A DNA stretch of 56,445 nucleotides from IMG/VR virus record IMGVR_UViG_3300046485_000109, positions 1 to 56,445 of that record, one strand, 5' to 3'. Every line of letters starts with the position of its first letter. The first letter of the stretch is position 1. Shown here piece by piece: positions 935 to 21,089 of this stretch. Source of the DNA: a virus. Taxonomy: Duplodnaviria > Caudoviricetes. Position numbers and translations under genes: made by a program. Under the pieces are notes generated by a model. That model was not told the DNA's origin. It made no database searches and worked only from the letters and a program-made list of their open reading frames with translations.

Positions 935-972
935 TTATTTATTCTATCACACTTTTTTGAGTGTGTAAGCAT

Positions 973-7593: not shown

Positions 7594-8178
7594 TTACTTA
7601 ATGTTTGAAATGAGTGCTTTGACTTCTGCTAATTCGGAATCATATGATTTGCCCCAATTTTTAGCAGCTTTTAATGCTTGTTTAGCGATTTCTTTAATTT
7701 TTTTGCCCCAATCTTTTAGACCTTCTTTAAGAGCAGTTCTAAGAGCAGGTGATTTTTCAGCAACCGTAATTTTAGTATGTTCTTCAACTAGCAATTTTAC
7801 TTGTTCTTCTAGATCAGGAACTAAAGCAACTAATTTTTCTAAAATTAAAGCATAATCTACTTTTTCTGTTCTAACAGATTGTTTTTTAGACAAAGTTAAA
7901 GTAGCTGAAATAGTATCAACAACGCGAGTTAATACTTCATCATCAGCATTGAATAAATCTTCAACTTCTTCTTTAATATCTGCATTTAACAAAGATTGTT
8001 GTTCTTGTAATTTTTCAACAGCTTTTTGTAATTTTTTATAACGAAAAATCAAACGTGTAAATTTACCGGATTGATTCCCTTGAAGAGACAAAATAACTCG
8101 ATCTAATTGACCTTTTACTTTTTTCTCTTCATACTCTAATTCTTCTCTTCGACCTTCAAATAATTCTGATAATAGCAT
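7594..8178 (-). CDS. coiled-coil late protein with MLLSELFE leader
   Basis: Late promoter at 8199-8206; AAGGAG SD. Confidence 0.7.
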   Translation of the reverse strand: MLLSELFEGRREELEYEEKKVKGQLDRVILSLQGNQSGKFTRLIFRYKKLQKAVEKLQEQQSLLNADIKEEVEDLFNADDEVLTRVVDTISATLTLSKKQSVRTEKVDYALILEKLVALVPDLEEQVKLLVEEHTKITVAEKSPALRTALKEGLKDWGKKIKEIAKQALKAAKNWGKSYDSELAEVKALISNIK

Positions 8179-8226
8179 AATTGTCTCCTTTAAATTATTA
8201 TTTATAGGAGGCTTTAATTGCTCTCT

Positions 8227-8801
8227 TTAAATAATAGGAATATCTCGACCTAATAATGTAAACCCTTCGATAACAGGTGGAACAACATGAGAGAACGCAT
8301 TACTACCAATAGCTTTAAGGTGTTCCCTAATTTCCATATGTAACTGTCCAAGCATGTTCTCTCCGGTCAATAGAGTAGGATCGTCTTTATGAAATTTTGC
8401 ACCCCAAAAATCATCTTTTTTAGAAATTTCAACAATTTCTTTATCACCAGTTTCTAGTAAAAGATCACGATATTCTACATGATTTTTAGCTTTGAGTTGA
8501 AGACACCATAACATAATATCAACTTTATTGTCTTCGAAAAAATCAATAGTTTCATTAGCACGACGACCATCTTTTTTTGCTACCATTTTTGCGCCCATAC
8601 CTGCTTTCTGATCCAAAATTTCTTTTTGATACTCGGGTTTATGAGGGAATCGCATTGCTTGATACAAATTTTCTGATGAATAAATCATTACATCTGGAAA
8701 AACTCTAAACTTAAATCCACCTGCCATATTACTAAATCCACCCCCCATTTTTCAGCAACTTTTGAAAAAGCGCAAACATCTGACAAAATATAAGTTTTCA
8801 T
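8227..8801 (-). pseudogene. NADAR (YbiA-like) protein with frameshift at a G6 tract
   Basis: GGFSNM, SENLYQAMRF, IVEIS..DDFWGA, GENMLG motifs; upstream MKTYILSDVCAFSKVAEKW is in another frame across 8741-8746. Confidence 0.8.
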
Positions 8802-8950: not shown

Positions 8951-11164
8951 TTATTTGCCATCGTCGACAGTTAATTTAACTGCGACATTTACACCATTTG
9001 AAACATAACCTTTAGTCACTTCAGCTTTATAACCAACTTGAATTGATGTTGCATGACCAGCATATGTGATCACCGCGCAATCAGCAACTGTAAAGGTTTT
9101 AGTACCAATAGTAACTTGATTTCCAGAAACCGCTGTTACTTTAGCATTTGCTACTGCAGATTTAGCACCAGAAGGAACTGCGCAAGATGCTGCAGGTACT
9201 GGAGTAGCTGTTGCAGGTACTGGAGTAGCTGTTGCAGGTACTGGAGTTGCTGTTGCAGGTACTGGAGTTGCTGTCGCAGGAACCGGAGTAGCCGTTGCAG
9301 GTACTGGAGTTGCTGTCGCAGGTACTGGAGTTGCTGTCGCAGGTACTGGAGTAGCTGTTGCAGGTACTGGAGTAGCCGTTGCAGGTACTGGAGTTGCTGT
9401 TGGAACTATAACTACAGGAGCAGGATCAACAGTTACTGTAGTTGGAATACAGTACATTGGTTTCCCATTAGCATCGACTGCTGCGCCATATGAACCAGAA
9501 TAAGTAACAAATCCACCATTAGGGAATGTGCCATTCAATAATCCACCATTAAATGCATATACAACACCAGTTGCAGGAATTGCAAGTAGGGTTGAAGCAG
9601 TAGTAATGTACGCAGATTTCAAAATAGTTCCGTCGATTTTTGCAATGCTTCCATTTCGTGCAGTACCATTAAGAATTACTTCACTTACACCAGAACAAGC
9701 TTGGGCTACTGGAGGTGGAGCAACTATTTGGCCATTAGCATTTAAAATGTTCATTGTATAAACTTGAGCACTTACAGTTCCATCAACATCTGTTACATGA
9801 ACAGTAAAAGTAAATGCACCAGCAACCGTAGGTGTTCCAGAAATAATACCGGTGTCAGGCGTAATTGCTAAACCATCAGGTAATGCACCAGTATCAACAG
9901 TTATAAAATAAGGAGCATTACCACCAAAGACAATAGTATTATCTTCCATTTTGGTATTGACTTTAATATCTGGCAAATTAGGTAGTTGTGTCAATGGCAT
10001 AACATCTTCAAATGCAACCATATTACCAGCTAAGTAAGTACCAACAAGTGCAACTTTAGAACAATCATATTGAGCGGTAAAAACATCAAAGATTGCAGGA
10101 TCCCAAGTAGTAATACCTACATTTGTTTGTGAACCGTGGATACCATCAGGACCAATTGCATCACACATTTGCTCATGTGTTTCATAGTCAAATGATTCAA
10201 CTGGTGCAATATTTTTAAACCATTCATATTTGCGAGTAATAGTTTCATCATTAGCTACATTTTCAGCAGCACCAACATGAGCTTGTTTGGCTCCACCATT
10301 TTGTCCAGCTGGTGGGGTTTGAACAAGATACCACTCACTTTCAATTTGAGCAGGTTCACCATTTTGCCAATCAGCTAAACCATCTCCATTATTATCTTCA
10401 TTAACCAACGCTTTTACAACGTCATCAGCATTTTTTCCGATTTTTTTATTATGAGTTGAAGTTTTAGTAACTTTCAACCATGTTGGTGTACCCCATTGAG
10501 CAGGAGGAACTGGAGCTTTTTCAGCGGGTGCTGGTTGAATAGGAACTACTTGAACAACTGGTGGTTGAACAGGAGCTACCCAAGGTTGAACAGGAGCTGG
10601 AGCTTGAAATACAGGAGCAGCCATACTTGCACCAGGGACAAGAGCACCAGCACTAGTACCGTGAACTAGTTTGCCAGTACCATCATCATTCAACCAATAA
10701 TAAGCAATAGATGTAACACCAGTTGGACCAGCTGACATTGCTGTCACGAAATGTTCACAACCTGTATCACCAACAGGTGAGGTACAAGAATGTCCACCAG
10801 TTGCCCAAGTACCAGACATTGGAATAGTGTTAACTACATATTTGCCAGTGGCATCTTTTAAAGATTCATAATGAACGACTGCATGAGGTTTACCAGCAGC
10901 ATCAGTATAAGAAGTAATTGTAGGTGCTTTATATCGACCATAAGTCCATGTATAACCTACTTGAGAAGGAAACGCATTTTCATAATCGATTTCAAACCCG
11001 TATGCAGGTTTACCAGTATCATTTGCGATGTCAAAGTTACCGGCAGTGCCACTTAGCACTCCAGCTGTAGAACCGCAAACACCATATCCATTACATGCTA
11101 CTGTCGCACTCGCAATAGGCGTAAAGAACGATGCCAAAAGCGGCACGTATTTCATAAATTTCAT
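8951..11164 (-). CDS. secreted surface protein: signal peptide, putative Ig (He_PIG-like) domain, PATATPV linker, DUF5666-like C-terminus
   Basis: Signal peptide ending ASA; GALPDGL...GIISGTPT Ig motif; late promoter at 11222-11229. Confidence 0.75.
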   Translation of the reverse strand: MKFMKYVPLLASFFTPIASATVACNGYGVCGSTAGVLSGTAGNFDIANDTGKPAYGFEIDYENAFPSQVGYTWTYGRYKAPTITSYTDAAGKPHAVVHYESLKDATGKYVVNTIPMSGTWATGGHSCTSPVGDTGCEHFVTAMSAGPTGVTSIAYYWLNDDGTGKLVHGTSAGALVPGASMAAPVFQAPAPVQPWVAPVQPPVVQVVPIQPAPAEKAPVPPAQWGTPTWLKVTKTSTHNKKIGKNADDVVKALVNEDNNGDGLADWQNGEPAQIESEWYLVQTPPAGQNGGAKQAHVGAAENVANDETITRKYEWFKNIAPVESFDYETHEQMCDAIGPDGIHGSQTNVGITTWDPAIFDVFTAQYDCSKVALVGTYLAGNMVAFEDVMPLTQLPNLPDIKVNTKMEDNTIVFGGNAPYFITVDTGALPDGLAITPDTGIISGTPTVAGAFTFTVHVTDVDGTVSAQVYTMNILNANGQIVAPPPVAQACSGVSEVILNGTARNGSIAKIDGTILKSAYITTASTLLAIPATGVVYAFNGGLLNGTFPNGGFVTYSGSYGAAVDANGKPMYCIPTTVTVDPAPVVIVPTATPVPATATPVPATATPVPATATPVPATATPVPATATPVPATATPVPATATPVPATATPVPATATPVPAASCAVPSGAKSAVANAKVTAVSGNQVTIGTKTFTVADCAVITYAGHATSIQVGYKAEVTKGYVSNGVNVAVKLTVDDGK
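9192..9404 (-). repeat. about ten 21-bp coding tandem repeats (PATATPV)
   Basis: gcaggtactggagtwgctgty units with synonymous variation. Confidence 0.9.
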
Positions 11165-11288
11165 TTATTTCTCTCCAAGGGTAGTAAATTTAATTGTTTA
11201 TAAAGTATAACGAACACTAAGTATTTATAGTCAAAAATTGTATTACGATTTGTAATAGAATTTTTTTAATATAATTTTAATGTTAAAC

Positions 11289-11321
11289 AAGGATCAGCAA
11301 CCATTATGGTTGCTGATCCTT
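11289..11321. terminator. near-perfect palindromic hairpin, probable terminator
   Basis: AAGGATCAGCAACCAT-T-ATGGTTGCTGATCCTT. Confidence 0.6.
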
Positions 11322-11361
11322 TCTGATAACCGCTTTTAACGGTTGGGAATAGCCTAAAATT

Positions 11362-11820
11362 TTAAAGTGCTTTCAAAATTTTAGAAGGTTCTACGGCTTG
11401 TTTGTTGACGTAAAATTTGCCGTGTGAAAAGCTGACTTTTTTATCAGCAACTTCAATCAAAAAGCCGCGATTGATAAATTTGACATGTTTTTTATCCAAG
11501 TGATTTTTCAAACCTGTCATATCAACAACTTTAACTCGTTGACGTTCTGTTTTTTCAACTTTGGCTCTATCTTCGTCGGTAACACGAAACGCTTTAAGCT
11601 CTTTATTCAATTGGATCAATTGGATCAATTCAGGTTCGATTGTTTTACGAACTTCTACAGCAGCTTTATAAACCGCTTTCAGTTCGGTAAAATCTTTTCC
11701 TTCAGCTTTAGCAGCAATTACTTCTGCTTTAGCATATTGAGCAGCATGTACTGCTTCAACGAATTTTGCCAATACTTCATTTTTGGCAACCAGTTTTTCT
11801 TGATATGTTTGAGTTCTCAT
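11362..11820 (-). CDS. early hypothetical protein
   Basis: GGAGAATTACG leader; promoter at 11884-11933 with upstream box. Confidence 0.7.
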   Translation of the reverse strand: MRTQTYQEKLVAKNEVLAKFVEAVHAAQYAKAEVIAAKAEGKDFTELKAVYKAAVEVRKTIEPELIQLIQLNKELKAFRVTDEDRAKVEKTERQRVKVVDMTGLKNHLDKKHVKFINRGFLIEVADKKVSFSHGKFYVNKQAVEPSKILKAL

Positions 11821-12050
11821 CGTAATTCTCCAGTAAATTTATCATCTTAGGTTTTTTAGTTCGGTATCTCCGAACATGAGAATATAATATCACATTACGG
11901 AAAAATGTAAACATTTATTTGTGTGAACTGGTTAACAGTTTTTGAAGACATCTAGCAATAGATGTAGTGATATTTCTTCTGTTTTCGCATTTGTACTTAC
12001 TCCAATAATAGAACTTAATCTATTTGTTGAAAAAGTACAAAAACAATCAT

Positions 12051-12124
12051 TGGAGCGGGCTACGAGAATCTAACTCGTTTCTTTCGCTTGGAAGGCGAAG
12101 GCCCGGACAATAGACCAAGCCCGC
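12051..12124 (-). tRNA. tRNA-Gly(TCC) with CCA, atypical D and T loops
   Basis: GCGGGCT/AGCCCGC-T-CCA; TTCGC-CTTCCAA-GCGAA; T-loop TTAGATT. Confidence 0.85.
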
Positions 12125-12133
12125 ATGTTTTAT

Positions 12134-12442
12134 TTATACTTCTAAGTAAAGCGCTAAAGCAACATCAGAAAATTCTTGTGGGAATTCATTTCTGAGTTTT
12201 AATAATTGATCGCTGTCGTAATTGATGTTAATTGTAACAAATTCATTTTTCTGTTGTCCTTTTAAACCTAAGGCAACATATGCTCTGACATGTTCATAAG
12301 TTATATTTAATCCTTTGGCTCGACATTGAGCAAATAATTCATCACGAGCATTGGCAAGAATTTCTGCTTCATAAATCAATGGATCACGACCCGCTGGTAT
12401 TTCTTCATAAGACTGAAGTCTAAATGTATATTCTATAAGCAT
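12134..12442 (-). CDS. hypothetical protein
   Basis: Starts 1 nt after the upstream stop. Confidence 0.6.
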   Translation of the reverse strand: MLIEYTFRLQSYEEIPAGRDPLIYEAEILANARDELFAQCRAKGLNITYEHVRAYVALGLKGQQKNEFVTININYDSDQLLKLRNEFPQEFSDVALALYLEV

Positions 12443-12443
12443 T

Positions 12444-13049
12444 TTATAAATCCTTCAATATTAATCTAATATGTTTTTTATCTACATCATAGGACCAAAC
12501 TCTATTATCAAAATCCCAGTCCTCTAATCCGTGATATATTACAACATCTTTTTCTAAAAAAGTTCCGTCACTTATATCAATAATATCAACAGTGATATCA
12601 GTCATTTTACTTAAACTTGACCATAATTTTCTAGCACCAAAAAATTGAGTTTCATCACCGAGAATATTAAATTTCAATTCTTTTACGAAATATCGATATA
12701 ATGATGTTGCTATTCGTAGTCCTTTCATTTTATCTGGAACTTTAACTCCTTCAACATTCATAAAAGTTTCTTGCATATTAGGAATGTTTGTAGGTTTAAA
12801 TTCAATTTGAAAATTTTCTTCAAATCTGGTTTCATCATTTTTTTTAATAAAGTCACCAACTATATAAAAATCACTCGACTTCAACTTGTAAATTTTCTTA
12901 ATACCTAAATACAGAATTTCAAGTTCGCCAATATAATCATATTGAGTTTTTAATACAGCTTCACCTCTATAAGTAATAGTCAATTCACCAAGTTGCCAAT
13001 CACCATATGCTGCTATTGCGTTCATCTCTAAAAGTTCTTTAATTTTCAC
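12444..13049 (-). CDS. GNAT-like acetyltransferase with MKIKELLE leader
   Basis: VKVPDKMKGLRIATSLY...DETQFFGARKLW; paralog of 15569-16195. Confidence 0.6.
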   Translation of the reverse strand: MKIKELLEMNAIAAYGDWQLGELTITYRGEAVLKTQYDYIGELEILYLGIKKIYKLKSSDFYIVGDFIKKNDETRFEENFQIEFKPTNIPNMQETFMNVEGVKVPDKMKGLRIATSLYRYFVKELKFNILGDETQFFGARKLWSSLSKMTDITVDIIDISDGTFLEKDVVIYHGLEDWDFDNRVWSYDVDKKHIRLILKDL

Positions 13050-13101
13050 TGTATTGCCTTAAAATAAATCGCTCCAAAATTACACTCATTAAATGTAATT
13101 T

Positions 13102-13172
13102 TGGAGCGAGAGAGAATCGAACTCTCAAGAGAGCAATGCAAATGCTCCAGTTTCCCATTAGCTTACCGCCCC
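13102..13172 (-). tRNA. tRNA-Ala(TGC), no encoded CCA
   Basis: GGGGCGG/TCGCTCC with G3:U70; GAGCA-TTTGCAT-TGCTC; TTCGATT loop. Confidence 0.9.
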
Positions 13173-13182
13173 ATAAATTTAG

Positions 13183-13294
13183 TTGATAAACAAAAGTAAT
13201 AATTGAGTTAAAGTTAACCATATTCAAGCTAGGAATCGAACCCAGAACTATTTTTTTGCAATAAAATGATAATCAATTATAAGCGGTTTATCAA
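13183..13294 (-). ncRNA. YrlA-like Y RNA with internal T-arm (copy 3)
   Basis: TTGATAAAC-CG...ATAATTGA-TTATC...CTGGG-TTCGATT-CCTAG...TCAATTAT...TTTT-GTTTATCAA. Confidence 0.65.
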
Positions 13295-13301
13295 AACCTT
13301 T

Positions 13302-13697
13302 TTAATGTACTTTTACTACTTCAATTCCACTTGAAGGTATTAAGCCTTCAAATACAAATTCAGTATGCAATTTAACTGTAGAAGAGCATATCATATAATC
13401 TAAATCAAACCAAGCATTTTCTAATTTACAATTACATAATCCAAAGATAGGAGTAAAAGTAACACCCGGTGATGAAACAGTTATATTTGATAATTTACGC
13501 TCTATTAGTTTTCTTATATCTTTAGAAAACTGTTCAAATGCTACAGGTATTTCAAAATCAATTTTAACTTTTTTATTCTTCAAATCAAAGTTAGCTTTAA
13601 CTACTTGTTTTGCTAAAATGCTATTTGGCAATGCATCAAATGTAATCGCAAATTGATGCGAAATCCACGGTTGTAAAATTCCCATTCCTGTTTCCAT
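13302..13697 (-). CDS. late protein, possible tail-tube-like paralog
   Basis: GILQP....F.ITF......LAKQV resembles jumbo-phage tube N-termini; late promoter at 13736-13743. Confidence 0.4.
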   Translation of the reverse strand: METGMGILQPWISHQFAITFDALPNSILAKQVVKANFDLKNKKVKIDFEIPVAFEQFSKDIRKLIERKLSNITVSSPGVTFTPIFGLCNCKLENAWFDLDYMICSSTVKLHTEFVFEGLIPSSGIEVVKVH

Positions 13698-13770
13698 TTT
13701 AAATACCTCTTATTATTCTTTCTGTTTTAAAGAGGTATTTATAGTAAAAGTAAGACTTGACATTTCGGCT

Positions 13771-14127
13771 CTAATTGCCTGGTGTGAGAGGTCTTAAAAT
13801 TACCTCTTTAACAGCCTTGACTACAAAAATAATATCTTCTGTTGACATAGATACTTTATCACAAAGTTGAACGGCTGCCTCACGATAGCTTTTATGAGCA
13901 AAACCTTGCCAGTTATGAACACCGTTTTTAACATCATAATACCATTCACAGCCATCAGTATGATTATGCTTACACAGTGTATTATGTAATACCACTGCCA
14001 GTTCTTCAACTGGCGATAAAAGTGTTAGTGCTTTAGCTTCTTCTAACTCAAGAGTCAACTTAAGTTTAGTGGCTTCAAGGTTTTCAATTTCTTTTTGTAA
14101 TTCATCAATGGTTTTCATGATCATCAT
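13771..14127 (-). CDS. hypothetical protein (LH..LC.HNHTDGC.W motif)
   Basis: Early promoter with box at 14191-14198. Confidence 0.6.
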   Translation of the reverse strand: MMIMKTIDELQKEIENLEATKLKLTLELEEAKALTLLSPVEELAVVLHNTLCKHNHTDGCEWYYDVKNGVHNWQGFAHKSYREAAVQLCDKVSMSTEDIIFVVKAVKEVILRPLTPGN

Positions 14128-14207
14128 CTCTCTTTAAAGTATGAATTCATTATATCCTGTTTTTCAAAATTGTACACACCTATTAGTGTGAACTAGTTAT
14201 CGTTTTT

Positions 14208-15080
14208 TCAAATTGTTAAAGAGCATATTTTCTGTTTAGTTTTAAATTCTCCGCAGCAGCTAAGACTACAAAATTTTCTATTTTTTCTAATATCTCGCTG
14301 ACAAGCTTTAAAAATAATTTCACAATTTAAACATTGTAATTCACTCCAATTTCGCTTTGGATCTAAAATCACTTTTTCTTTTTTCTTATTTTGTTCTTTA
14401 CTCCATCCAATAGGAATGATATCTATTTTTAAAATTTTAGTATTTTGTTTTGGTTTTCGTCCTTTACACCAACCAGATGGAATGATGTCTGTTTTTAATA
14501 TTTTAGTATTTTCTAAAGTATCTAAATTATAAATCCATATCTTTCCATACTGAGAATTCTTTTCACCTTGCTGATGACAATTATTTTTATGAATTAAACG
14601 AATTTTTAGTTTCGTTTCATCAGAATGTGTTTTTCCAGTAAAAGTATCATATTTTATTTTACCTTCAGCATGAAGTTTTTTAGCTAGTGTACTCATTCTA
14701 TTTTTATTTCGATTTACACATTCTTGATTATTCCAAAAATATTCAGCAACTTTTTTACCATTTTCTTTTCTAAATTCTTGATTTTCCATTTGATTAATAT
14801 AATCAAATCCGCCGTGACCTCCACGGCGGAGATTATAAACATCTTCCCTCAAGAGAAATTCCTCAGTTACGATTTCTTTTTCTCTTGCATACATATCTTC
14901 AGTATTACTAAAGAATTCTAGTATGTCTTTACGAAAGTTTTCTAAACCATGCTTTTCAATAGCATATTTTAACACCTTTCCTGAGCCCATATACCCATCT
15001 TCTAAATTCTGGGTTTTATGAACGCCAACATAGATCTTGTTATTCACGAGGTTAGTGATTTGATAGATGTAATAGTACAT
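14208..15080 (-). CDS. GIY-YIG homing endonuclease (Seg-like) with NUMOD3
   Basis: YIYQITNLVNNKIYVGVH...YMGSG...YNL; GKTHSDETK; late promoter at 15100-15107. Confidence 0.9.
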   Translation of the reverse strand: MYYYIYQITNLVNNKIYVGVHKTQNLEDGYMGSGKVLKYAIEKHGLENFRKDILEFFSNTEDMYAREKEIVTEEFLLREDVYNLRRGGHGGFDYINQMENQEFRKENGKKVAEYFWNNQECVNRNKNRMSTLAKKLHAEGKIKYDTFTGKTHSDETKLKIRLIHKNNCHQQGEKNSQYGKIWIYNLDTLENTKILKTDIIPSGWCKGRKPKQNTKILKIDIIPIGWSKEQNKKKEKVILDPKRNWSELQCLNCEIIFKACQRDIRKNRKFCSLSCCGEFKTKQKICSLTI

Positions 15081-15123
15081 ATATGTACCTCCTTACATCT
15101 ATTTATAACAATTCTACTTTGTG

Positions 15124-15194
15124 TATTCCTAACGGGTGTCGAGCCCGTGCTATCACCTTGAAAGGGTGATATTCTACCGTTAAACTATAGGAAT
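15124..15194 (-). tRNA. tRNA-Glu(TTC), no encoded CCA
   Basis: ATTCCTA/TAGGAAT; TCACC-CTTTCAA-GGTGA; T-loop CTCGACA. Confidence 0.85.
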
Positions 15195-15207
15195 ATAAAG
15201 CCTAAAT

Positions 15208-15280
15208 TCGGGATTGTAGGACTCGAACCTACGTCTCCGATTCCCAAAACCGGTGCTAAACCAACCTCAGCTAAACCCCG
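15208..15280 (-). tRNA. tRNA-Pro(TGG), no encoded CCA
   Basis: CGGGGTT/AATCCCG; CCGGT-TTTGGGA-ATCGG; TTCGAGT loop. Confidence 0.9.
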
Positions 15281-15312
15281 AATTTAGACTCTACTACTTT
15301 CTTTCAGACATT

Positions 15313-15342
15313 AAAAAAGGGAACCTGTTTAGAGTTCCCTTT
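15313..15342 (-). terminator. intrinsic terminator (attenuator) upstream of tRNA-Pro/Glu
   Basis: AAAGGGAAC-N9-GTTCCCTTT-TTT. Confidence 0.75.
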
Positions 15343-15367
15343 GATAAAGTCTTGTTACTTCTTAACT

Positions 15368-15481
15368 TTACAAAAGGAACCTCTTTCTATCACTCTCCGG
15401 ATACGACGGAGCATAACTTGGCGCAGCATAGCTTGCCTCGTCAATAATACTCATAATGTCAATAATTCTGGAAGTGTTCAT
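15368..15481 (-). CDS. 37-aa putative attenuator leader peptide
   Basis: MNTSRIIDIMSIIDEASYAAPSYAPSYPESDRKRFLL; its 3' end is the antiterminator strand. Confidence 0.6.
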   Translation of the reverse strand: MNTSRIIDIMSIIDEASYAAPSYAPSYPESDRKRFLL

Positions 15482-15568
15482 TTGTTTTTAACTCGCGTTT
15501 GTAATGTAAGTTTGTATATTCTATTTATAGGTTTTCTAAAAATTATGTAGTTATTTTATCACAATTTT

Positions 15569-16195
15569 TTAAGTTTGTACATCTTTATTTTTTGCTACTA
15601 ATAAAGTATAAGTTTTTGAATTATTAATAGACCAAATTTCAGCATCATCTATATTTAATCCATCATATACTTCAGGTTTACCATCTTTCATTCTCAGTTC
15701 AGTATCATCTGATATATAGACTTCATAATTATTTTTAATAGCCTTCTTAGCTACTTTTTTCCAAAGCTCTTTACCACCAAGGTATTGTAAATTATCTGAG
15801 ATAACAACATAACCAGCTTGTATTAGTGCAAGATAAAGATAATAACCAACACCACGACGTTGTTGAATTTTATTAATCTCAACACCATCTATTTGTAGAA
15901 CTTTTTCAGGTACATCTATATCTTCAATTGAAGATATATTTAAAGGCTTCTTAAAATCTACAGAACCTAAGATATAAGCACCAGGAGCATTATCATCGGG
16001 CCGTTCACCTCGTTCCCCTATAAAAGCAAAAGTTTTATCTTTAGATAAACCAACAATAAATGTTTTATCAAAAATAATATCATATTTTGCAGTTATACTA
16101 TTAGTAGTATAAAATTTTTTAAAATTACCAGAAATTAATGTTGGTAATTCTCTATTTATAAATTGAGGCATTTCAAATAATTCTTCAACTTTCAT
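15569..16195 (-). CDS. GNAT-like acetyltransferase with MKVEELFE leader
   Basis: QQRRGVGYYLY motif A; SDNLQYLGGKELW. Confidence 0.65.
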   Translation of the reverse strand: MKVEELFEMPQFINRELPTLISGNFKKFYTTNSITAKYDIIFDKTFIVGLSKDKTFAFIGERGERPDDNAPGAYILGSVDFKKPLNISSIEDIDVPEKVLQIDGVEINKIQQRRGVGYYLYLALIQAGYVVISDNLQYLGGKELWKKVAKKAIKNNYEVYISDDTELRMKDGKPEVYDGLNIDDAEIWSINNSKTYTLLVAKNKDVQT

Positions 16196-16243
16196 AAATT
16201 TATTTTATCACAATTTTAACTTTACGTATATCTTTACTTTTAA

Positions 16244-16270
16244 TGGTGCGCCAGGGGAGAATCGAACTCC
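16244..16270 (-). pseudogene. orphan tRNA 3' fragment (T arm, acceptor strand, CCA) of tRNA-Leu(TAG)
   Basis: GGAG-TTCGATT-CTCC-C-CTGGCGC-A-CCA; pairs with GCGCCGG at 17278-17284. Confidence 0.8.
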
Positions 16271-16312
16271 GGTAAAATTATAAATATAATTTTAATATAA
16301 TAAAACTAAATT

Positions 16313-17224
16313 ATGATAAATTTAACACCTAGATGTTCATGTATTATTTGTAGAAATAATCAATCTGCAAAAGGCATTCATTCTCATTTTATAACAGCAC
16401 ATACAAAAGAAGGAAATGATAGGATTAAAAATACTTCAAAACATTCTAGTGCTAAAGCAACAACTACTCGCAAAAATAAAAATTTTATTTTAAATTTAGA
16501 AAAATGGAAAATATATTATTCTAATCCTACTAAATGTAAACACTGCAACCAAGATCTTGATTGGTTTAAACGAAAAAATACATTTTGTGATGCTTCTTGT
16601 GCCGCTAATTTTACTAATAAATTACGTCCGGTTGGGCATTCTAGTCGAATTAAAAATAATAAAAATAGATCAGACAAACTTAAAAATTTTTATAAAGATA
16701 TTAGTAAAATAAAAATTGATACTAAAAAACAAAAATTTTCAAAAGTATCGTTTTGTCAAATTTGTAATAAATCTATTCCATACAAATTAATCAAAACGTG
16801 TTCTTCTAAATGTTATAAACAACTGCTAAGTATTAAAGCTTCAACACGAATGACACATCCACAAAATGGAAAAACTATTTTATACAATGGCATTAAATTA
16901 GGTTCATCATATGAATTAAAAGTAGCACAATCATTAGATGAATATAATATTACTTGGACTAAGCCAAAACCTTTATTATATACCGATCCAAATAATAAAA
17001 TGCGTCGTTACTTTGCAGATTTTTATCTTCCGGATTTTAATATCTATTTAGATCCGAAAAATGATTTTTTAATTAATAATACTAATCCAGAAACCGGATT
17101 TAATGATTGTGAAAAAATTAAACGGGCTGAAATTTATAATAATGTGAAGATTATAATTCTTAATAAAAATCAACTTAATTGGAATACTATAAGATTATTA
17201 ATTTGTAGGGAAGGAGGGACTTGA
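16313..17224 (+). CDS. putative homing endonuclease: Zn-finger clusters plus PD-(D/E)xK-like nuclease
   Basis: Multiple CxxC; SSYELKVA...YFADFYLPDFNIYLDPK; late promoter at 16279-16286; inverted inside a tRNA gene. Confidence 0.75.
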   Translation: MINLTPRCSCIICRNNQSAKGIHSHFITAHTKEGNDRIKNTSKHSSAKATTTRKNKNFILNLEKWKIYYSNPTKCKHCNQDLDWFKRKNTFCDASCAANFTNKLRPVGHSSRIKNNKNRSDKLKNFYKDISKIKIDTKKQKFSKVSFCQICNKSIPYKLIKTCSSKCYKQLLSIKASTRMTHPQNGKTILYNGIKLGSSYELKVAQSLDEYNITWTKPKPLLYTDPNNKMRRYFADFYLPDFNIYLDPKNDFLINNTNPETGFNDCEKIKRAEIYNNVKIIILNKNQLNWNTIRLLICREGGT

Positions 17225-17284
17225 ACCCTCACTCTTAAGAACTAGCATCTAAAACTAGCATGTCTGCCATTTCATCACCGGCGC
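17206..17284 (-). tRNA. tRNA-Leu(TAG) body with non-cognate 3' acceptor strand (disrupted or chimeric)
   Basis: CTAGT-TTTAGAT-GCTAG; variable arm; T arm intact; GCGCCGG cannot pair with local CTTCCCT. Confidence 0.75.
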
Positions 17285-17286
17285 AT

Positions 17287-17769
17287 TTATCTCTTTTTCC
17301 AGAAGCCTATCGATCTCGCATATGCTTCTGCTAATAATTCTTGTGCTTCATAAGAACATAATCTATTTCGATCGGGAATTATTCCAACTCTACCTAAATC
17401 CAATCTATCTGCATCCCAACATGTATGCACTGTTAAATTGCTGCTATAACCTTCAACTGAATGAAATTCACATGCAATTGGTAATGTGCCAAGTTGATAT
17501 TCTGATATTTTAATTATGTTTTTTTCATATAAAGCTTCAGCAAATTTTGCAGCTCTTTTACCATGATCAACATCAGAACTACTATCTAATTCTCGACAAC
17601 TATCATGTAAGAAAGCAAATAATTCAACTACTTTTCTATCAGCTCCATTCTTTTCGGCCATCTTTAATCCGTTCCATCTAACTCTTGACCAATGAGCAGC
17701 ACCATGTATCGCGTTCCAGGATAATACATATTTTTTTCTTATTTCAACAATCAGTTCTTGTGTAATTAT
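17287..17769 (-). CDS. HD-domain phosphohydrolase, probable ATA start
   Basis: IHGAAHWSRV (upstream of the tracked ATG), LHDSCR, DHG, CWDADRLDLGR. Confidence 0.85.
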   Translation of the reverse strand: MITQELIVEIRKKYVLSWNAIHGAAHWSRVRWNGLKMAEKNGADRKVVELFAFLHDSCRELDSSSDVDHGKRAAKFAEALYEKNIIKISEYQLGTLPIACEFHSVEGYSSNLTVHTCWDADRLDLGRVGIIPDRNRLCSYEAQELLAEAYARSIGFWKKR

Positions 17770-17960
17770 TTTAATCTAAAAATTACTTTCTTTTCAAATA
17801 AACTTAAACCACCAACAAAACCATATCCAAAAAAAAATATTGCTAGTGCTTCACCTAATATTGGAGTAAATGCAAAATACACCCAACTTAAAATTCCTAC
17901 TAATTCTCTAAAATAAAGAACTTTTTCTTTTATGAGAGGTTTAATCAAAACCTTATACAT
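17766..17960 (-). CDS. small membrane protein
   Basis: Two hydrophobic segments. Confidence 0.45.
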   Translation of the reverse strand: MYKVLIKPLIKEKVLYFRELVGILSWVYFAFTPILGEALAIFFFGYGFVGGLSLFEKKVIFRLK

Positions 17961-17990
17961 AAATAAAAAATTAATTAAAATTGATAAATA

Positions 17991-18203
17991 ATGAAACTCG
18001 TCGAACTATTTGAAAAATATGATAAAAAACATAAATGTCTAACACCAGGTACAATTTATAAAACTAAAATACATTCAGACCATATTTCTATTAGATTAAA
18101 TCTACCAGATAAAATTAAAGAAATAAAAGCTTCTCAAACTGAAGATTTAGAATCAGACCTTCATTATGCCATAGAAAAAGTTTTAGCTAAGTATTATTTT
18201 TAA
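17991..18203 (+). CDS. small protein with MKLVELFE leader
   Basis: NATAAATA motifs upstream at 17958 and 17983. Confidence 0.65.
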   Translation: MKLVELFEKYDKKHKCLTPGTIYKTKIHSDHISIRLNLPDKIKEIKASQTEDLESDLHYAIEKVLAKYYF

Positions 18204-18352
18204 GTCCAACTCTATAATATCTTAAAGATAAGGTACGTCTTTTATACTGATACTCACCACAATATTTTTTAATAATTCGTTTTACTTCAACAGGTGTTTC
18301 TTCACCAAGTTGTTCATACACCTTATAAAAAAGTCTAATGTTTCTTTATCTA

Positions 18353-18748
18353 TCATCTCATCAGTTCGTAATGAAGATTACCAGTAATAACGTTAGATAA
18401 AAGCTCACATGCAATAGTTTGCGAAAGTTCTTTTACCAAAATGCCAGGAATTTCATCTTTAGGAACCCATTCCTTAATCTTACTTTCATGTCGAACCTGT
18501 TTTCCATTGAGTTCAAACACTACCACTACATTCTTAGATGCTCTTAAAACATCTTGGTAAATATGAACCATTCCCTTAAGTTCATTGTTATCAAGATGAA
18601 GTGCCGCCAATAAATTAGCTTCAGCTTTTTTCTGCATCTCATTCAACAATCTTACTGACTCATCTGTGGGTGCTCGTTTTTCAGTAACCGAAACATTCAC
18701 TGAACTCGGACCTCTATAACCAGGTCCTGACAAATAAGTATCAAACAT
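18353..18748 (-). CDS. hypothetical phage protein
   Basis: EKRAPTDESVRLL.EM motif. Confidence 0.65.
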   Translation of the reverse strand: MFDTYLSGPGYRGPSSVNVSVTEKRAPTDESVRLLNEMQKKAEANLLAALHLDNNELKGMVHIYQDVLRASKNVVVVFELNGKQVRHESKIKEWVPKDEIPGILVKELSQTIACELLSNVITGNLHYELMR

Positions 18749-18946
18749 CTAATTCACCTGAAATAATTTATTTAACAACTGTTTTTCTTTTTCAATTAAT
18801 GGATGTCTATTATCAATATACCATCTTAAAAATCGTTTAGAAAGATTCGAAATCGGTTTATCACGTTCAATCTCATAAGTCCACATTAAAGGACGCATCT
18901 TAAACAATAAGAAAGTTTCAAACAACTCATCATCTTCTTTAGACAT
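18749..18946 (-). CDS. hypothetical protein (start corrected to MSKEDD)
   Basis: GAGG SD; the longer ORF overlaps a tRNA. Confidence 0.55.
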   Translation of the reverse strand: MSKEDDELFETFLLFKMRPLMWTYEIERDKPISNLSKRFLRWYIDNRHPLIEKEKQLLNKLFQVN

Positions 18947-18967
18947 CTTCAATCCTCTCGTTATTAA

Positions 18968-19052
18968 TGGTGCGACAGGAGGGACTCGAACCCTCACGAC
19001 CGAAGTCACAGGTATCTTAAACCTGCACGGCTACCACTTACGTCACCGTCGC
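18968..19052 (-). tRNA. tRNA-Leu(AAG) with CCA
   Basis: GCGACGG/CTGTCGC-A-CCA; CAGGT-TTAAGAT-ACCTG; long variable arm. Confidence 0.9.
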
Positions 19053-19057
19053 GTATT

Positions 19058-19438
19058 TTATATTTTCTTTAAATCCGAATACACTTCAGCATCACTTTCA
19101 TATTCATCATTCCAATATTTCATTAATGGTTCATAATTAATAATGATCCAATCAAAAATATCATCAAGTTCAGCTTGATCCATCTTAGCTTTTCCAGCTA
19201 AAACTTTTGGTTCTTTTGAAATAGATACTGAAAAATTATCATTACTAGAAAAAGTACCTTTAACATTACTAACTTTTAATCTAGCCCAATGTCTTTGCTG
19301 AACATAGTCTTTAGAAGAAATAAAAATTATCCAAGGCAAACCTGAATTGGCCGGCTTAACGCGAGCCATCTCCCACAATTGGGATTCTGTTAAGAACAAT
19401 TCATTTGATGGATCAAAAATTAATTCTTCTAATTTCAC
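19058..19438 (-). CDS. DUF4160-like protein, paralog of 530-934 (GTG start)
   Basis: MKLEELIF...WEMARVKPANSGLPWIIFI...H.ARLKVSN. Confidence 0.6.
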   Translation of the reverse strand: MKLEELIFDPSNELFLTESQLWEMARVKPANSGLPWIIFISSKDYVQQRHWARLKVSNVKGTFSSNDNFSVSISKEPKVLAGKAKMDQAELDDIFDWIIINYEPLMKYWNDEYESDAEVYSDLKKI

Positions 19439-19466
19439 TTTTATTATTTTTCTATTATTATAAAAA

Positions 19467-19552
19467 TGGTAGCACCACCCGGACTCGAACCGAGAAGCCA
19501 TGACGGCGGAAGATTTTAAATCTCCAGAGTTTACCAATTTCTCCACGGTGCC
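19467..19552 (-). tRNA. tRNA-Leu(TAA) with CCA
   Basis: GGCACCG/TGGTGCT-A-CCA; GGAGA-TTTAAAA-TCTTC; late promoter at 19576-19583. Confidence 0.9.
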
Positions 19553-19598
19553 ATTTATTCTTTTTAATTATACCTTATTTATAGGTATTTGTACATCT

Positions 19599-19922
19599 TT
19601 ATTTTGTGCAAAGTGATTCTACATAATCAATTAGTAATTGTTGTTTTTTATCACCTAAACTATCAAAATGAAACAAATCTTTTGGAAAAGATTCACCTTT
19701 AATTTCAATGCATTTGCCATTGCTAAGCCATAATAGCAAAGTGCCTTCTAAATTTCCATCTGAATTCAATTCCAATTCATCAGTATCAACTTCAGTTATT
19801 GATGAAAACATTTTTAAGAGAGTTAAATCTCCTTGCTTTTTTCCTGAATTCAAATCAATTTTCAAATCAATTTTAATACCTTCTACGAGAGTTTGAAGTT
19901 CTGCTAATAATTTAAGTTCCAT
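19599..19922 (-). CDS. late hypothetical protein (MELKLLAEL..LVE leader)
   Basis: Late promoter at 19951-19958. Confidence 0.6.
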   Translation of the reverse strand: MELKLLAELQTLVEGIKIDLKIDLNSGKKQGDLTLLKMFSSITEVDTDELELNSDGNLEGTLLLWLSNGKCIEIKGESFPKDLFHFDSLGDKKQQLLIDYVESLCTK

Positions 19923-19963
19923 AATAATACTCTCTTTTTGGATAAAAGATTATTTATATAAAT

Positions 19964-20091
19964 TGGAGACAGAAACTGGATTCGAACCAGTGACCCGCTG
20001 GTTGGGATAATCATTTACCTACGGTCCCTTGAGAGGACAAATTATCGGAAACGATGTTATGTCGGCTGCTCTACCACTGAGCTATTCGGTC
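19964..20091 (-). ncRNA. tRNA-like RNA with anticodon arm replaced by a permuted Y-RNA core (copy 4)
   Basis: Acceptor plus CCA, GCTC-AGTGGTA-GAGC D arm, ACTGG-TTCGAAT-CCAGT T arm; insert TTTGTCCT..GGGACCG...AAATGATTATCC. Confidence 0.7.
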
Positions 20092-20100
20092 TATAATTTA

Positions 20101-20322
20101 TTAAAACAACAGAATTGCATCTGTTGTAGAATATGCTATTACCATTCGATTAGAATTTCTTAAGCAATGATTAGTCCCTTCGTTTTTAGGGCCATTTATT
20201 TTTTCACAAGCATCACGAGCTTCTTGTGGTGTTTCAAATTCAACAACATTTTGAACAACATCTGCTGCAACTTGCCCACTATTACTTGTACAAATCGTTT
20301 TTACTAAAATTTTGTAACTCAT
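20101..20322 (-). CDS. early hypothetical protein
   Basis: Promoter with AACTAGTT box at 20406-20413. Confidence 0.6.
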   Translation of the reverse strand: MSYKILVKTICTSNSGQVAADVVQNVVEFETPQEARDACEKINGPKNEGTNHCLRNSNRMVIAYSTTDAILLF

Positions 20323-20407
20323 CGTGTAATTCTCTAGGTTATCAATTTAAGAAAGTAAGATAATTATATCTTGTATTTCTGAAAAAATAAACAACTATTT
20401 ATGCAAA

Positions 20408-20638
20408 CTAGTTATCACTTTTCCAAATCAAACTAACATACTGTTTCATTAATACATCAAAATCATTATCTCTATCTTGAACTTTGGCATATGACCAACT
20501 TTGATGATAGCCATTAAAGACGAACCTAATTGAAGGTTCTCCTCCTCCCTCAAAGTCTTTAAAGAATGTATTGATCCGTTCCAAATTGATTGGTTTTTTT
20601 GTATAATGATCAACAACTGAACTTACAATAAATTTCAT
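20408..20638 (-). CDS. hypothetical protein (start corrected to MKFIV)
   Basis: GAGG SD. Confidence 0.55.
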   Translation of the reverse strand: MKFIVSSVVDHYTKKPINLERINTFFKDFEGGGEPSIRFVFNGYHQSWSYAKVQDRDNDFDVLMKQYVSLIWKSDN

Positions 20639-20651
20639 TTTAGCCTCTTTA

Positions 20652-21089
20652 TTAAAATTGTTTTTGAGCGAATACTTTATTGCTTTCAAATAAGACTTGC
20701 GGTGCATTAGTTATTTCTTGAAGTCTTTGACCTCTACGTCTATCACCTTGTCTTTTTCCAAGTTCAGGAACCATATCTACTTTAAGAGCATGATTAGATC
20801 TTCGTTCATTTGAATGATGTCTAATATGATATTCACGAACTGCAACAGGTTTATTCAACAATTTCTGTGCATTCAATTTTCGAATAATCTTTCTACCAGT
20901 CTTGTTATTACCTGTATAAATCAGTGCATGATATTCGATACCATCTGTCTTAGTATCTTTATAGATAACAATCCGGATATTATCTATTGATAATGGTTTT
21001 CTAAACCATCTCAATAGAGCCGGTGTTATAAACTGTTTAATATCAAACTCTGTAGTAGTTTCAGGTATTCTTGGTATAATCAATATCAT
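20652..21089 (-). CDS. RRM-like RNA-binding protein, host-like
   Basis: I..IP..TT..DI..F...H.LI....IIRKLN...L.NKPVAVREY; RRM topology. Confidence 0.55.
   Translation of the reverse strand: MILIIPRIPETTTEFDIKQFITPALLRWFRKPLSIDNIRIVIYKDTKTDGIEYHALIYTGNNKTGRKIIRKLNAQKLLNKPVAVREYHIRHHSNERRSNHALKVDMVPELGKRQGDRRRGQRLQEITNAPQVLFESNKVFAQKQF

Follow-up and report, generated by a model that had tools for sequence, protein, structure and literature searches.

We have examined a stretch of 56,445 bases from a single virus record (IMG/VR record IMGVR_UViG_3300046485_000109; here called the window), and in particular a leader that lies upstream of two of its tRNA genes, tRNA-Pro and tRNA-Glu. We conclude, with moderate confidence, that the minus-strand stretch 15581-15306 is the 5′ leader of a transcription unit running into these two genes and that it acts as a ribosome-mediated transcription attenuator. 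An earlier reading of the same DNA (the original prediction) had proposed an attenuator with trp/his-type geometry. That geometry holds: the stop codon of a short open frame lies inside the upstream arm of an antiterminator, a terminator follows, and the same order recurs in two related records, G004 and G005. The parts of the element, their mutual exclusion, their near-equal energies, their rarity by chance and their conservation with compensatory changes in one related lineage were all established by computation.

Based on these observations, we propose that RNA started at either an early-type or a late-type promoter carries a frame of 37 codons, and that its last four codons and stop form part of the 5′ arm of a 20-bp antiterminator that would sequester the whole 5′ arm of the terminator. 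The antiterminator would be transcribed first and, as long as it remained intact, polymerase would read on into the tRNA genes. A ribosome at the end of the frame would cover the 5′ arm, the terminator would then form, and transcription would stop 34 nucleotides (nt) before tRNA-Pro. If the ribosome were absent, or were held at or before codon 30, the antiterminator would stay intact. Since the choice of fold would depend on the ribosome, slow or failed translation of the leader would result in more transcription of the tRNA genes. For this scheme we infer translation of the frame, coupling of translation and transcription at the leader, and the efficiency of the terminator.

Competing hairpins at the end of the leader frame

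The unit opens with two promoters on the minus strand. An early-type, sigma-70-like promoter with an extended -10 (15553-15581; TGTACA-17-TAAAAT, 9 of 12 matches, TG before the -10) overlaps the stop codon of an upstream 208-codon frame that ends at 15569 on the same strand; the original prediction had placed this promoter from 15551, which is about right. The late-type promoter that it had also named, TATAAATA, is present at 15522-15529 and was identified by its match to the T4-type late promoter consensus. This motif occurs 17 times in the window against 10.3 ± 2.8 expected, with 14 of the 17 copies on the minus strand. The early-type -10 sits within a longer motif, KTGTGATAnAATA, all nine copies of which lie on the gene (minus) strand. 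Inspection by eye revealed no sigma-70 promoter within the leader frame.

The frame itself was found where the original prediction had put it (15368-15481, minus strand). It starts with ATG in unstructured, A-rich RNA, has no clear Shine-Dalgarno site, and runs for 37 codons to a TAA. Its final four sense codons and the stop (15370-15368) belong to region 2 (15364-15384), which forms the 5′ arm of the antiterminator. Region 3 (15331-15351) is a shared arm that can pair either with region 2 or with the 3′ arm of an intrinsic terminator spanning 15306-15352, all of these again on the minus strand. In the core of the terminator, 15342-15333 pairs with 15325-15316 across a loop of 7 nt, giving a 10-bp stem with a run of six T (15318-15313), and the extended hairpin reaches -19.3 kcal/mol. 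A terminator between the frame and the tRNA genes is thus present, as had been predicted. The antiterminator (15384-15331) comprises 20 bp with one bulge, reaches -19.9 kcal/mol and holds the stop codon paired in mid-helix; the pairing originally described, 15380-15365 with 15350-15334, is real and longer than claimed. Because all 10 core 5′-arm bases of the terminator are taken up by the alternative pairing, the two hairpins are mutually exclusive, and folding of both conformers, a check suggested with the original prediction, showed them to be nearly isoenergetic.

Such competition is rare by chance. Adding the 5′ arm of the terminator to the 80 nt upstream of it yields a pairing gain of -13.3 kcal/mol. 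A gain at least as large occurred in 4 of 2000 dinucleotide shuffles and in 1 of the 1410 natural 80-nt segments taken from the same strand. When 28 terminator-like sites from the window and about 87 kb of related loci were compared, the upstream competitor was strongest here (-12.9 versus a mean of -3.5, sd 3.6). The terminator stem-loop itself was found once in the window.

The order in which the two structures would form was followed by folding the growing, ribosome-free transcript. Once region 3 has been made, the antiterminator is the minimum free energy (MFE) structure, and it remains so for all 3′ ends from 15334 to 15310; for the full leader the two alternatives are isoenergetic (-45.6 with the terminator versus -45.1 with the antiterminator). 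A ribosome was then represented by masking everything up to 12 nt past the first base of its A-site codon, which is an assumed footprint. With this mask, the antiterminator is predicted as long as the A-site codon is no later than 30 (codon 26 being nearly a tie), and the terminator from codon 31 to the stop. No 1:2 hairpin that would favor termination without translation was found, region 2 having only weak pairings with the 5′ end (12 bp, against 7 bp in the related locus L030 described below).

Two features of the frame speak for its being translated. Opening the region around its start costs 3.2 kcal/mol, compared with 6.6 ± 2.8 for real starts (91% of which are harder to open) and 9.2 ± 3.2 for 150 random ATGs (99% harder). 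In shuffled sequences, an ATG frame ending at the terminal TAA in the arm attained at least 15 codons in 411 of 5000 cases and at least 37 codons in 54 of 5000. The GC-rich codons singled out by the original prediction are present in the frame, and the GC content at 15395-15440 is 59%, compared with 33% window-wide. A degenerate tRNA in this GC-rich patch was considered and rejected, as no tRNA model matched. The distal part of the frame (codons 22-31) also contains a hairpin with the core CUCCG/CGGAG (15389-15417, minus strand), which is part of the MFE structure both of the full leader and of the 80 nt that precede the terminator arm, and which may serve as a pause hairpin.

Downstream, tRNA-Pro (anticodon UGG; 15207-15281) starts 34 nt past the terminator stem and is followed by tRNA-Glu (anticodon UUC; 15123-15194), both on the minus strand and in the order originally predicted. 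Both genes were called by ARAGORN and matched by Rfam, at 57.8 and 62.9 bits, respectively. A clear terminator right upstream of a tRNA gene is exceptional among these phages. A laxer scan of up to 200 nt upstream of 31 distinct tRNA genes, from the window and three relatives, flagged four terminator-like sites, and a clean stem followed by six T was seen at the window's tRNA-Pro alone, the three other sites being weak or lying within other features. A stricter scan of the 140 nt upstream of 18 further tRNA genes, which were present in 4 of 80 further loci, returned no terminator-like site.

The unit in a related phage lineage

Eighty loci were gathered by means of a neighboring gene of 124 amino acids (aa; 17287-17661), and a local BLAST of the leader matched L030 and L031, which are identical to each other here. 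They belong to records G004 (119 kb) and G005 (86 kb), both of which are colinear with the window around the leader. The promoter block, 15589-15520 in the window, is 84.5% identical over 71 nt to its counterpart and spans both promoters; in L030 the late promoter TATAAATA lies at 8067-8074 (plus strand) and is likewise preceded by an early-type promoter. An ATG frame of 46 codons (8101-8241, plus strand) follows and ends at the same TAA as the window frame, the 13-mer holding this stop (15377-15365 in the window) being identical. A frame of at least 46 codons ending at this TAA appeared in 36 of 5000 shuffles, and opening its start costs 2.0 kcal/mol. The stop codon is again paired within the L030 antiterminator, which has 21 pairs (-21.5 kcal/mol); the terminator has 11 pairs (-13.8 kcal/mol) and a T-rich tail. 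In the alternative fold, 10 of the 11 bases in the terminator's 5′ arm pair with region 2; the corresponding pairing gain is -10.8, which 8 of 2000 shuffles reached.

Alignment of the two terminators showed that all 10 pairs are kept. Two of them have changed on both sides (AU/UA and CG/UA), one has changed on one side, and none is broken. The portion of region 2 that faces the changed arm also differs yet still pairs, while the codons there have changed from Arg-Phe to Gly-Pro. Since pairing is maintained as the residues change, the two sequences point to selection on the pairing rather than on the peptide. The original prediction had depended on conservation of the frame and the antiterminator in homologs, and both do recur in the syntenic G004 and G005, with compensatory changes in the terminator. 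Past the G004 terminator come 108 nt that contain no significant structure (z = -0.52 in L030), a promoter-like site, a frame of 74 codons and then a tRNA cluster in which tRNA-Pro, whose anticodon loop carries 30 inserted nt, is accompanied by tRNA-Tyr and tRNA-Glu(UUC). Two close variants of the L030 peptide (P0004 and P0005; 47 and 46 aa; 96% and 91% identical) were called as proteins in other assemblies. These variants, together with the in-frame indels among P0004, P0005 and L030, were left out of the evidence because a protein search finds frame-keeping variants only.

Other searches were made for the unit, its peptide and its neighborhood. BLAST of the L030 leader over 50 whole records found G004 and G005 only, and a covariance model of the unit run over 82 records found G004 only, apart from one false match to an ordinary gene-end terminator in G064. 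Related-locus searches with the 208-aa and 118-aa neighbors produced no confirmed relative. Leader patterns had no match across viral contigs and eight matches in genome contigs, all of them unrelated gene-end terminators of bacterial metagenome-assembled genomes. An exact 36-nt pattern from tRNA-Pro had no match; a pattern from the 5′ half of this tRNA detected G001 and the L012 type only among viral contigs and, among metagenome contigs, three L012-type copies and one GC-richer phage, none of them with the leader. At the protein level, neither the 37-aa nor the 46-aa peptide had a tblastn match among 50,697 phage records. A phmmer search of 1.84 billion representatives with the 37-aa peptide produced three matches, all to low-complexity stretches in proteins of 387-734 aa, and a profile search with the window-L030 peptide alignment returned only the two close variants already known. 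Rfam scans of 11000-21000 at E ≤ 1 and of 15285-15570 at E ≤ 10 yielded tRNAs and chance matches only, with no T-box. One phage genotype recurs across several data sets: contigs from four other public DNA runs (X2-X5; peat or permafrost metagenomes) match window positions 14200-16200 in short pieces with zero differences. No RNA run was found to contain the stretch. The DNA pieces contain no variants and therefore offer no population covariation, and the uncovered parts are uninformative.

Counter-evidence and alternative explanations

A number of observations weigh against attenuation by a translating ribosome. The best Shine-Dalgarno duplex of the leader frame is -2.5 kcal/mol, a value equaled or bettered by 71% of 38 long frames, and the L030 frame has no Shine-Dalgarno site either. 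In favor of translation, several of the phage's long frames are also without such a site. Codon usage of the leader frame is intermediate between real genes and spurious frames, at -0.12 per codon: 37-codon windows of real genes score 0.55 ± 0.24, with 0.7% of them lower than the leader, and 66 spurious frames score -0.37 ± 0.32, with 15% of them higher. Rare codons account for 9 of its 37 codons versus a mean of 1.9. The leader interior is poorly conserved as DNA (58% identity between the window and L030, with many gaps). MAFFT placed 20 identical residues in 32 aligned columns of the two peptides, 11 of the 20 being encoded by different codons. The global peptide alignment score was reached by 105 of 2000 residue shuffles, a non-coding frame pair scored 24 versus 27 for the leader peptides, BLASTP between the two gave no alignment at E ≤ 100, and the DNA alignments of the window with L030 showed no excess of third-position changes. 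Purifying selection at the peptide level is thus unsupported by residue shuffles, frame control, BLASTP and codon-phase counts, and our claim is limited to the frame being, to judge from the two sequences, kept open in both phages.

Only two distinct DNA sequences are known for the unit, which means that the covariation rests on few events. In L030 the masked-ribosome fold is untidy, with the antiterminator as the MFE structure at A-site codons 36-38 only, and the full-length MFE structure favors the terminator once its 3′ arm has been made. About 510 nt, including the promoter-like site (seen by eye) and the 74-codon frame, separate the terminator from the tRNA cluster of G004. The leader is also absent from two other relatives. 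In G001 (a 164-kb record; 64% identity in a virion protein), only promoters and a tRNA-like fragment precede the orthologous tRNA-Pro, which is 84% identical, and in the L012-type phage the orthologous tRNA-Pro has tRNA-Tyr directly upstream. Finally, the sequence of the terminator's 3′ arm and tail recurs in region 2 as a direct repeat (score 33 versus 16.8 ± 3.3; 0 of 1000 shuffles). Given this repeat and the two tandem duplications (18 and 15 nt) inside the leader frame, duplication without selection may have created the alternative pairing.

Within the attenuator reading, a more specific possibility is that the leader senses the supply of the tRNAs that it controls. Stalls at its Ser-Tyr-Pro-Glu codons would then keep the antiterminator closed, and tRNA-Pro and tRNA-Glu (with tRNA-Tyr in G004) would be switched on by scarcity or depletion of the cognate tRNAs or by their cleavage through host defence nucleases. 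We consider this form of the model doubtful. It draws on the finding that S-Y-P-E, which we noticed post hoc, is the sole conserved stretch beside the switch point (codons 26-29 in the window and 38-41 in L030), and on a downstream cluster that reads Pro-Glu in the window and Pro-Tyr-Glu in G004. The predicted switch point of the window comes directly after the S-Y-P-E codons; under the assumed footprint, the flip between codons 30 and 31 follows immediately on S-Y-P-E-S. Enrichment of Pro and Glu is weak. In L030 the two contribute 10 of 46 residues overall (p = 0.017) and 8 of 26 distally (p = 0.0035), but the window peptide has only 5 of 37 (p = 0.33). In the pooled peptides Ser is the most enriched residue (13 of 83, p = 0.0045), and Ile (p = 0.03) also ranks above Pro (0.06), Tyr (0.11) and Glu (0.14); the unit holds no tRNA-Ser or tRNA-Ile. 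The window leader does use CCG twice and GAG twice, codons that the phage's genes seldom use (3.2 and 4.2 per 1000) and that the UGG and UUC anticodons would read through wobble. Against this, there are no codon runs like those of the his, thr or phe leaders, Tyr was added to the scheme after the data had been seen, and the masked L030 fold is already the terminator at A-site codons Y39, P40 and E41. If this form of the model were true, the unit would be the first known leader-peptide attenuator controlling tRNA genes and would provide a built-in counter to tRNA-targeting immunity.

Three further explanations are rivals of the attenuator. The frame could encode a small protein with its own job, in which case the terminator would simply end a small gene, the tRNAs would be made by leak-through or from other promoters such as that of G004, and the alternative hairpin would be a by-product of duplication. 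A frame open in two phages with open start sites, the alignment of N-terminal residues unrelated to Pro or Glu (IID and SIID), the calling of two close variants as proteins, the separate promoter-like site (by eye) before the G004 tRNA cluster and the direct repetition in region 2 of the terminator's 3′ half would all fit such a gene. We nevertheless think it improbable, as the window and L030 peptides are not significantly alike, no relatives were found in the 1.84 billion representatives beyond low-complexity matches to long proteins, and the antiterminator is kept in both phages despite a changed terminator arm. Moreover, a ribosome translating such a gene must still disrupt the antiterminator on reaching the stop, so that translation-dependent termination follows from the structure whether it was selected or not. 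Rather less probable, in our opinion, is an untranslated frame, with the hairpin either masking the terminator permanently, perhaps as a duplication scar by which an inherited terminator was neutralised, or leaving the choice of fold to a protein, an RNA or the speed of polymerase instead of the ribosome. The lack of a Shine-Dalgarno site, the atypical codon usage and the duplication-prone region would be expected here, and so would the preference of the naked nascent RNA for the antiterminator, which is its MFE structure in the window and much the stabler structure locally in L030 (-21.5 versus -13.8). Frames of 37 and 46 codons with the same stop would then be improbable, however, on the shuffle counts given above (54 and 36 of 5000), the start sites are unusually open in both phages, and a useless terminator should decay, yet 10 of 10 pairs have been kept through two compensatory changes; there is also no match to an Rfam family, T-box included. 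Phage T4 encodes stable RNAs beside its tRNA genes, and the stretch from promoter to terminator could in principle be a small non-coding RNA, stable and some 200 to 235 nt long, with defined ends, a GC-rich patch and internal hairpins. We regard this as very improbable, because the whole-leader fold is unremarkable (z = -1.35; 21 of 200 shuffles fold equally well), the interior is poorly conserved as DNA while the open frame is kept, and Rfam gave no match.

Known systems and the surrounding tRNA region

Leader-peptide attenuators are known in the enterobacterial amino-acid operons trp, his, leu, thr, pheA and ilv. The pheL leader is the subject of PMC3082878. The unit described here resembles them in having a short frame soon after the promoter, an intrinsic terminator ahead of the regulated genes, an upstream arm that competes for the terminator's 5′ arm, and a stop codon so placed that a finishing ribosome would block the antiterminator. 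It differs in that phage tRNA genes, rather than biosynthetic genes, lie downstream, and in that its frame is long (37 and 46 codons), without a run of a single codon and without a Shine-Dalgarno site. There is also no strong 1:2 hairpin, and naked RNA of the phage leader is therefore predicted to read through instead of terminating.

Two further comparisons concern tRNA. T-box riboswitches are tRNA-sensing antiterminators, and they share with the present unit a choice between terminator and antiterminator that is linked to the tRNA economy; here, in contrast, the antiterminator has a one-base bulge and an open frame overlaps the switch. The T-box covariance model had no match in the Rfam scans, beyond which a specifier loop or T-box sequence was not sought. 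The tRNA region of phage T4 holds tRNA genes, the homing endonuclease gene segB and stable RNAs, and the window similarly has its tRNA genes among small frames and GIY-YIG or HNH endonuclease genes. We know of no leader frame with a terminator/antiterminator pair described in the T4 region.

Attenuators that sense translation stress through stalled ribosomes have been reported for vmlR of Bacillus subtilis (PMC9226507) and for the upstream frame of whiB7 in mycobacteria (bioRxiv 10.1101/2023.06.02.543512). They too combine an upstream frame with a terminator/antiterminator pair, and slowed ribosomes lead to read-through, which is the logic of a general sensor of translation trouble. Those systems are bacterial and respond to antibiotics or amino-acid shortage, whereas here the carrier is a phage and the output is tRNA. 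A phage precedent of another kind is provided by the PeSL cassettes, composite terminator/early-promoter motifs of T4-like phages (PMC4122927 and PMC2839356). The present unit shares with them a location in a hyperplastic part of a T4-like genome rich in endonuclease genes, a highly conserved promoter block beside a stem-loop, and surrounding gene content that is shuffled between relatives. Unlike in those cassettes, the order here is promoter, frame and stem-loops, and the stem-loop has a conserved competitor overlapping a stop codon. A check for PeSL traits showed that the promoter motif is repeated nine times in the window, and that the leader stem-loop is located downstream of the promoter and occurs in one copy. 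A literature search of titles and abstracts, which did not extend to subscription journals or to the older literature on the tRNA region of T4, found no leader-peptide attenuator described upstream of tRNA genes.

The window appears to come from a giant uncultured phage, the completeness estimate of 16% suggesting a genome of about 350 kb. The majority of its frames lie on the minus strand, and for one virion protein a single distant relative is found in the deposited phages, namely Ralstonia phage RsoM2USA at 27% identity. Between 11 and 21 kb, tRNA genes detected by ARAGORN and Rfam are interspersed with small frames and with genes for GIY-YIG and HNH-like endonucleases, an arrangement that resembles the tRNA region of T4-like phages. 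The GIY-YIG homing endonuclease gene (14208-15080, minus strand; phrog_314, E = 1.2e-43) comes directly after tRNA-Glu and has a further TATAAATA ahead of it at 15107-15100 (minus strand), and the HNH-like endonuclease gene (16313-17224, plus strand) lies nearby on the strand opposite to the leader. Gene order near the tRNAs is not the same in the window, G001 and G004, the order in G001 being tRNA-Pro, tRNA-Glu(CUC) and tRNA-Tyr. Two frames that adjoin tRNA genes, of 208 aa (15569-16195, minus strand) and 201 aa (12444-13049, minus strand), are distant paralogues of unassigned function (26% identity over 124 residues, E = 3e-6).

Several features of this region bear on how the phage's other transcripts might be made. 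The late-type motif TATAAATA lies 6 nt ahead of tRNA-Gly (12131-12138, minus strand) and 23 nt ahead of tRNA-Leu(UAA) (19576-19583, minus strand), and some tRNAs of the phage may therefore be transcribed straight from late promoters. Copies of the extended -10 motif at 16201-16213 and 940-952 (minus strand) end about 7 nt before the ATGs of the 208-aa frame and of a 134-aa frame, neither of which has a Shine-Dalgarno site; these two frames may be transcribed as leaderless mRNAs. At 13069-13109 (minus strand) the 3′ end of tRNA-Ala contains the start of a perfect 19-bp hairpin with a T-rich tail behind it, which looks like a terminator sharing bases with the acceptor strand of that tRNA.

The tRNA genes themselves show some further peculiarities. 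Inverted repeats flank tRNA-Pro in the window (15282-15293 with 15196-15206) and would extend the acceptor stem of the precursor by about 10 pairs. The same flank is seen in L005, the locus of the G001 orthologue (1501-1512 with 1587-1598), where, by eye, pairing has been kept through changes on both sides, and the L012 tRNA-Pro has a similar flank (about 10838-10847 with 10926-10935) after an encoded CCA. These repeats may serve as a processing signal or may mark a mobile tRNA cassette. At about 1385-1445 of L005 (plus strand), before the tRNA-Pro of G001, lies a stretch that by eye resembles a tRNA over its 5′ two-thirds, including a GAU anticodon loop; ARAGORN did not call it. Two tRNA-like genes, also not called by ARAGORN, carry insertions in the anticodon arm: the one at 19967-20091 of the window (minus strand; 40.9 bits) has an anticodon-arm stretch of 66 nt versus 13 in the model, and the tRNA-Pro(UGG) of G004 (L030 8813-8913, plus strand; 43.9 bits) has 30 extra nt in its anticodon loop. 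They may contain small introns or be disrupted genes. A further tRNA-like gene at 17206-17279 (minus strand), found by Rfam only (31.6 bits), has a very short D arm and lies directly after the 124-aa gene, at the place where L030 has a tRNA-Leu(UAG). It was considered as an ochre suppressor, a possibility that was ruled out when the loop was re-read as the anticodon UAG (Leu).

Phage tRNA genes are widespread and their role is debated; the proposals include codon compensation, making good the loss of host tRNAs to degradation, and evasion of anticodon nucleases (PMC10264068). How phages regulate their own tRNA genes is hardly known. The unit described here is a compact part of about 230 nt that is amenable to reporter and in vitro study, and, if it proves to be a ribosome-mediated attenuator, at least some phages would tune their tRNA output to the state of translation.

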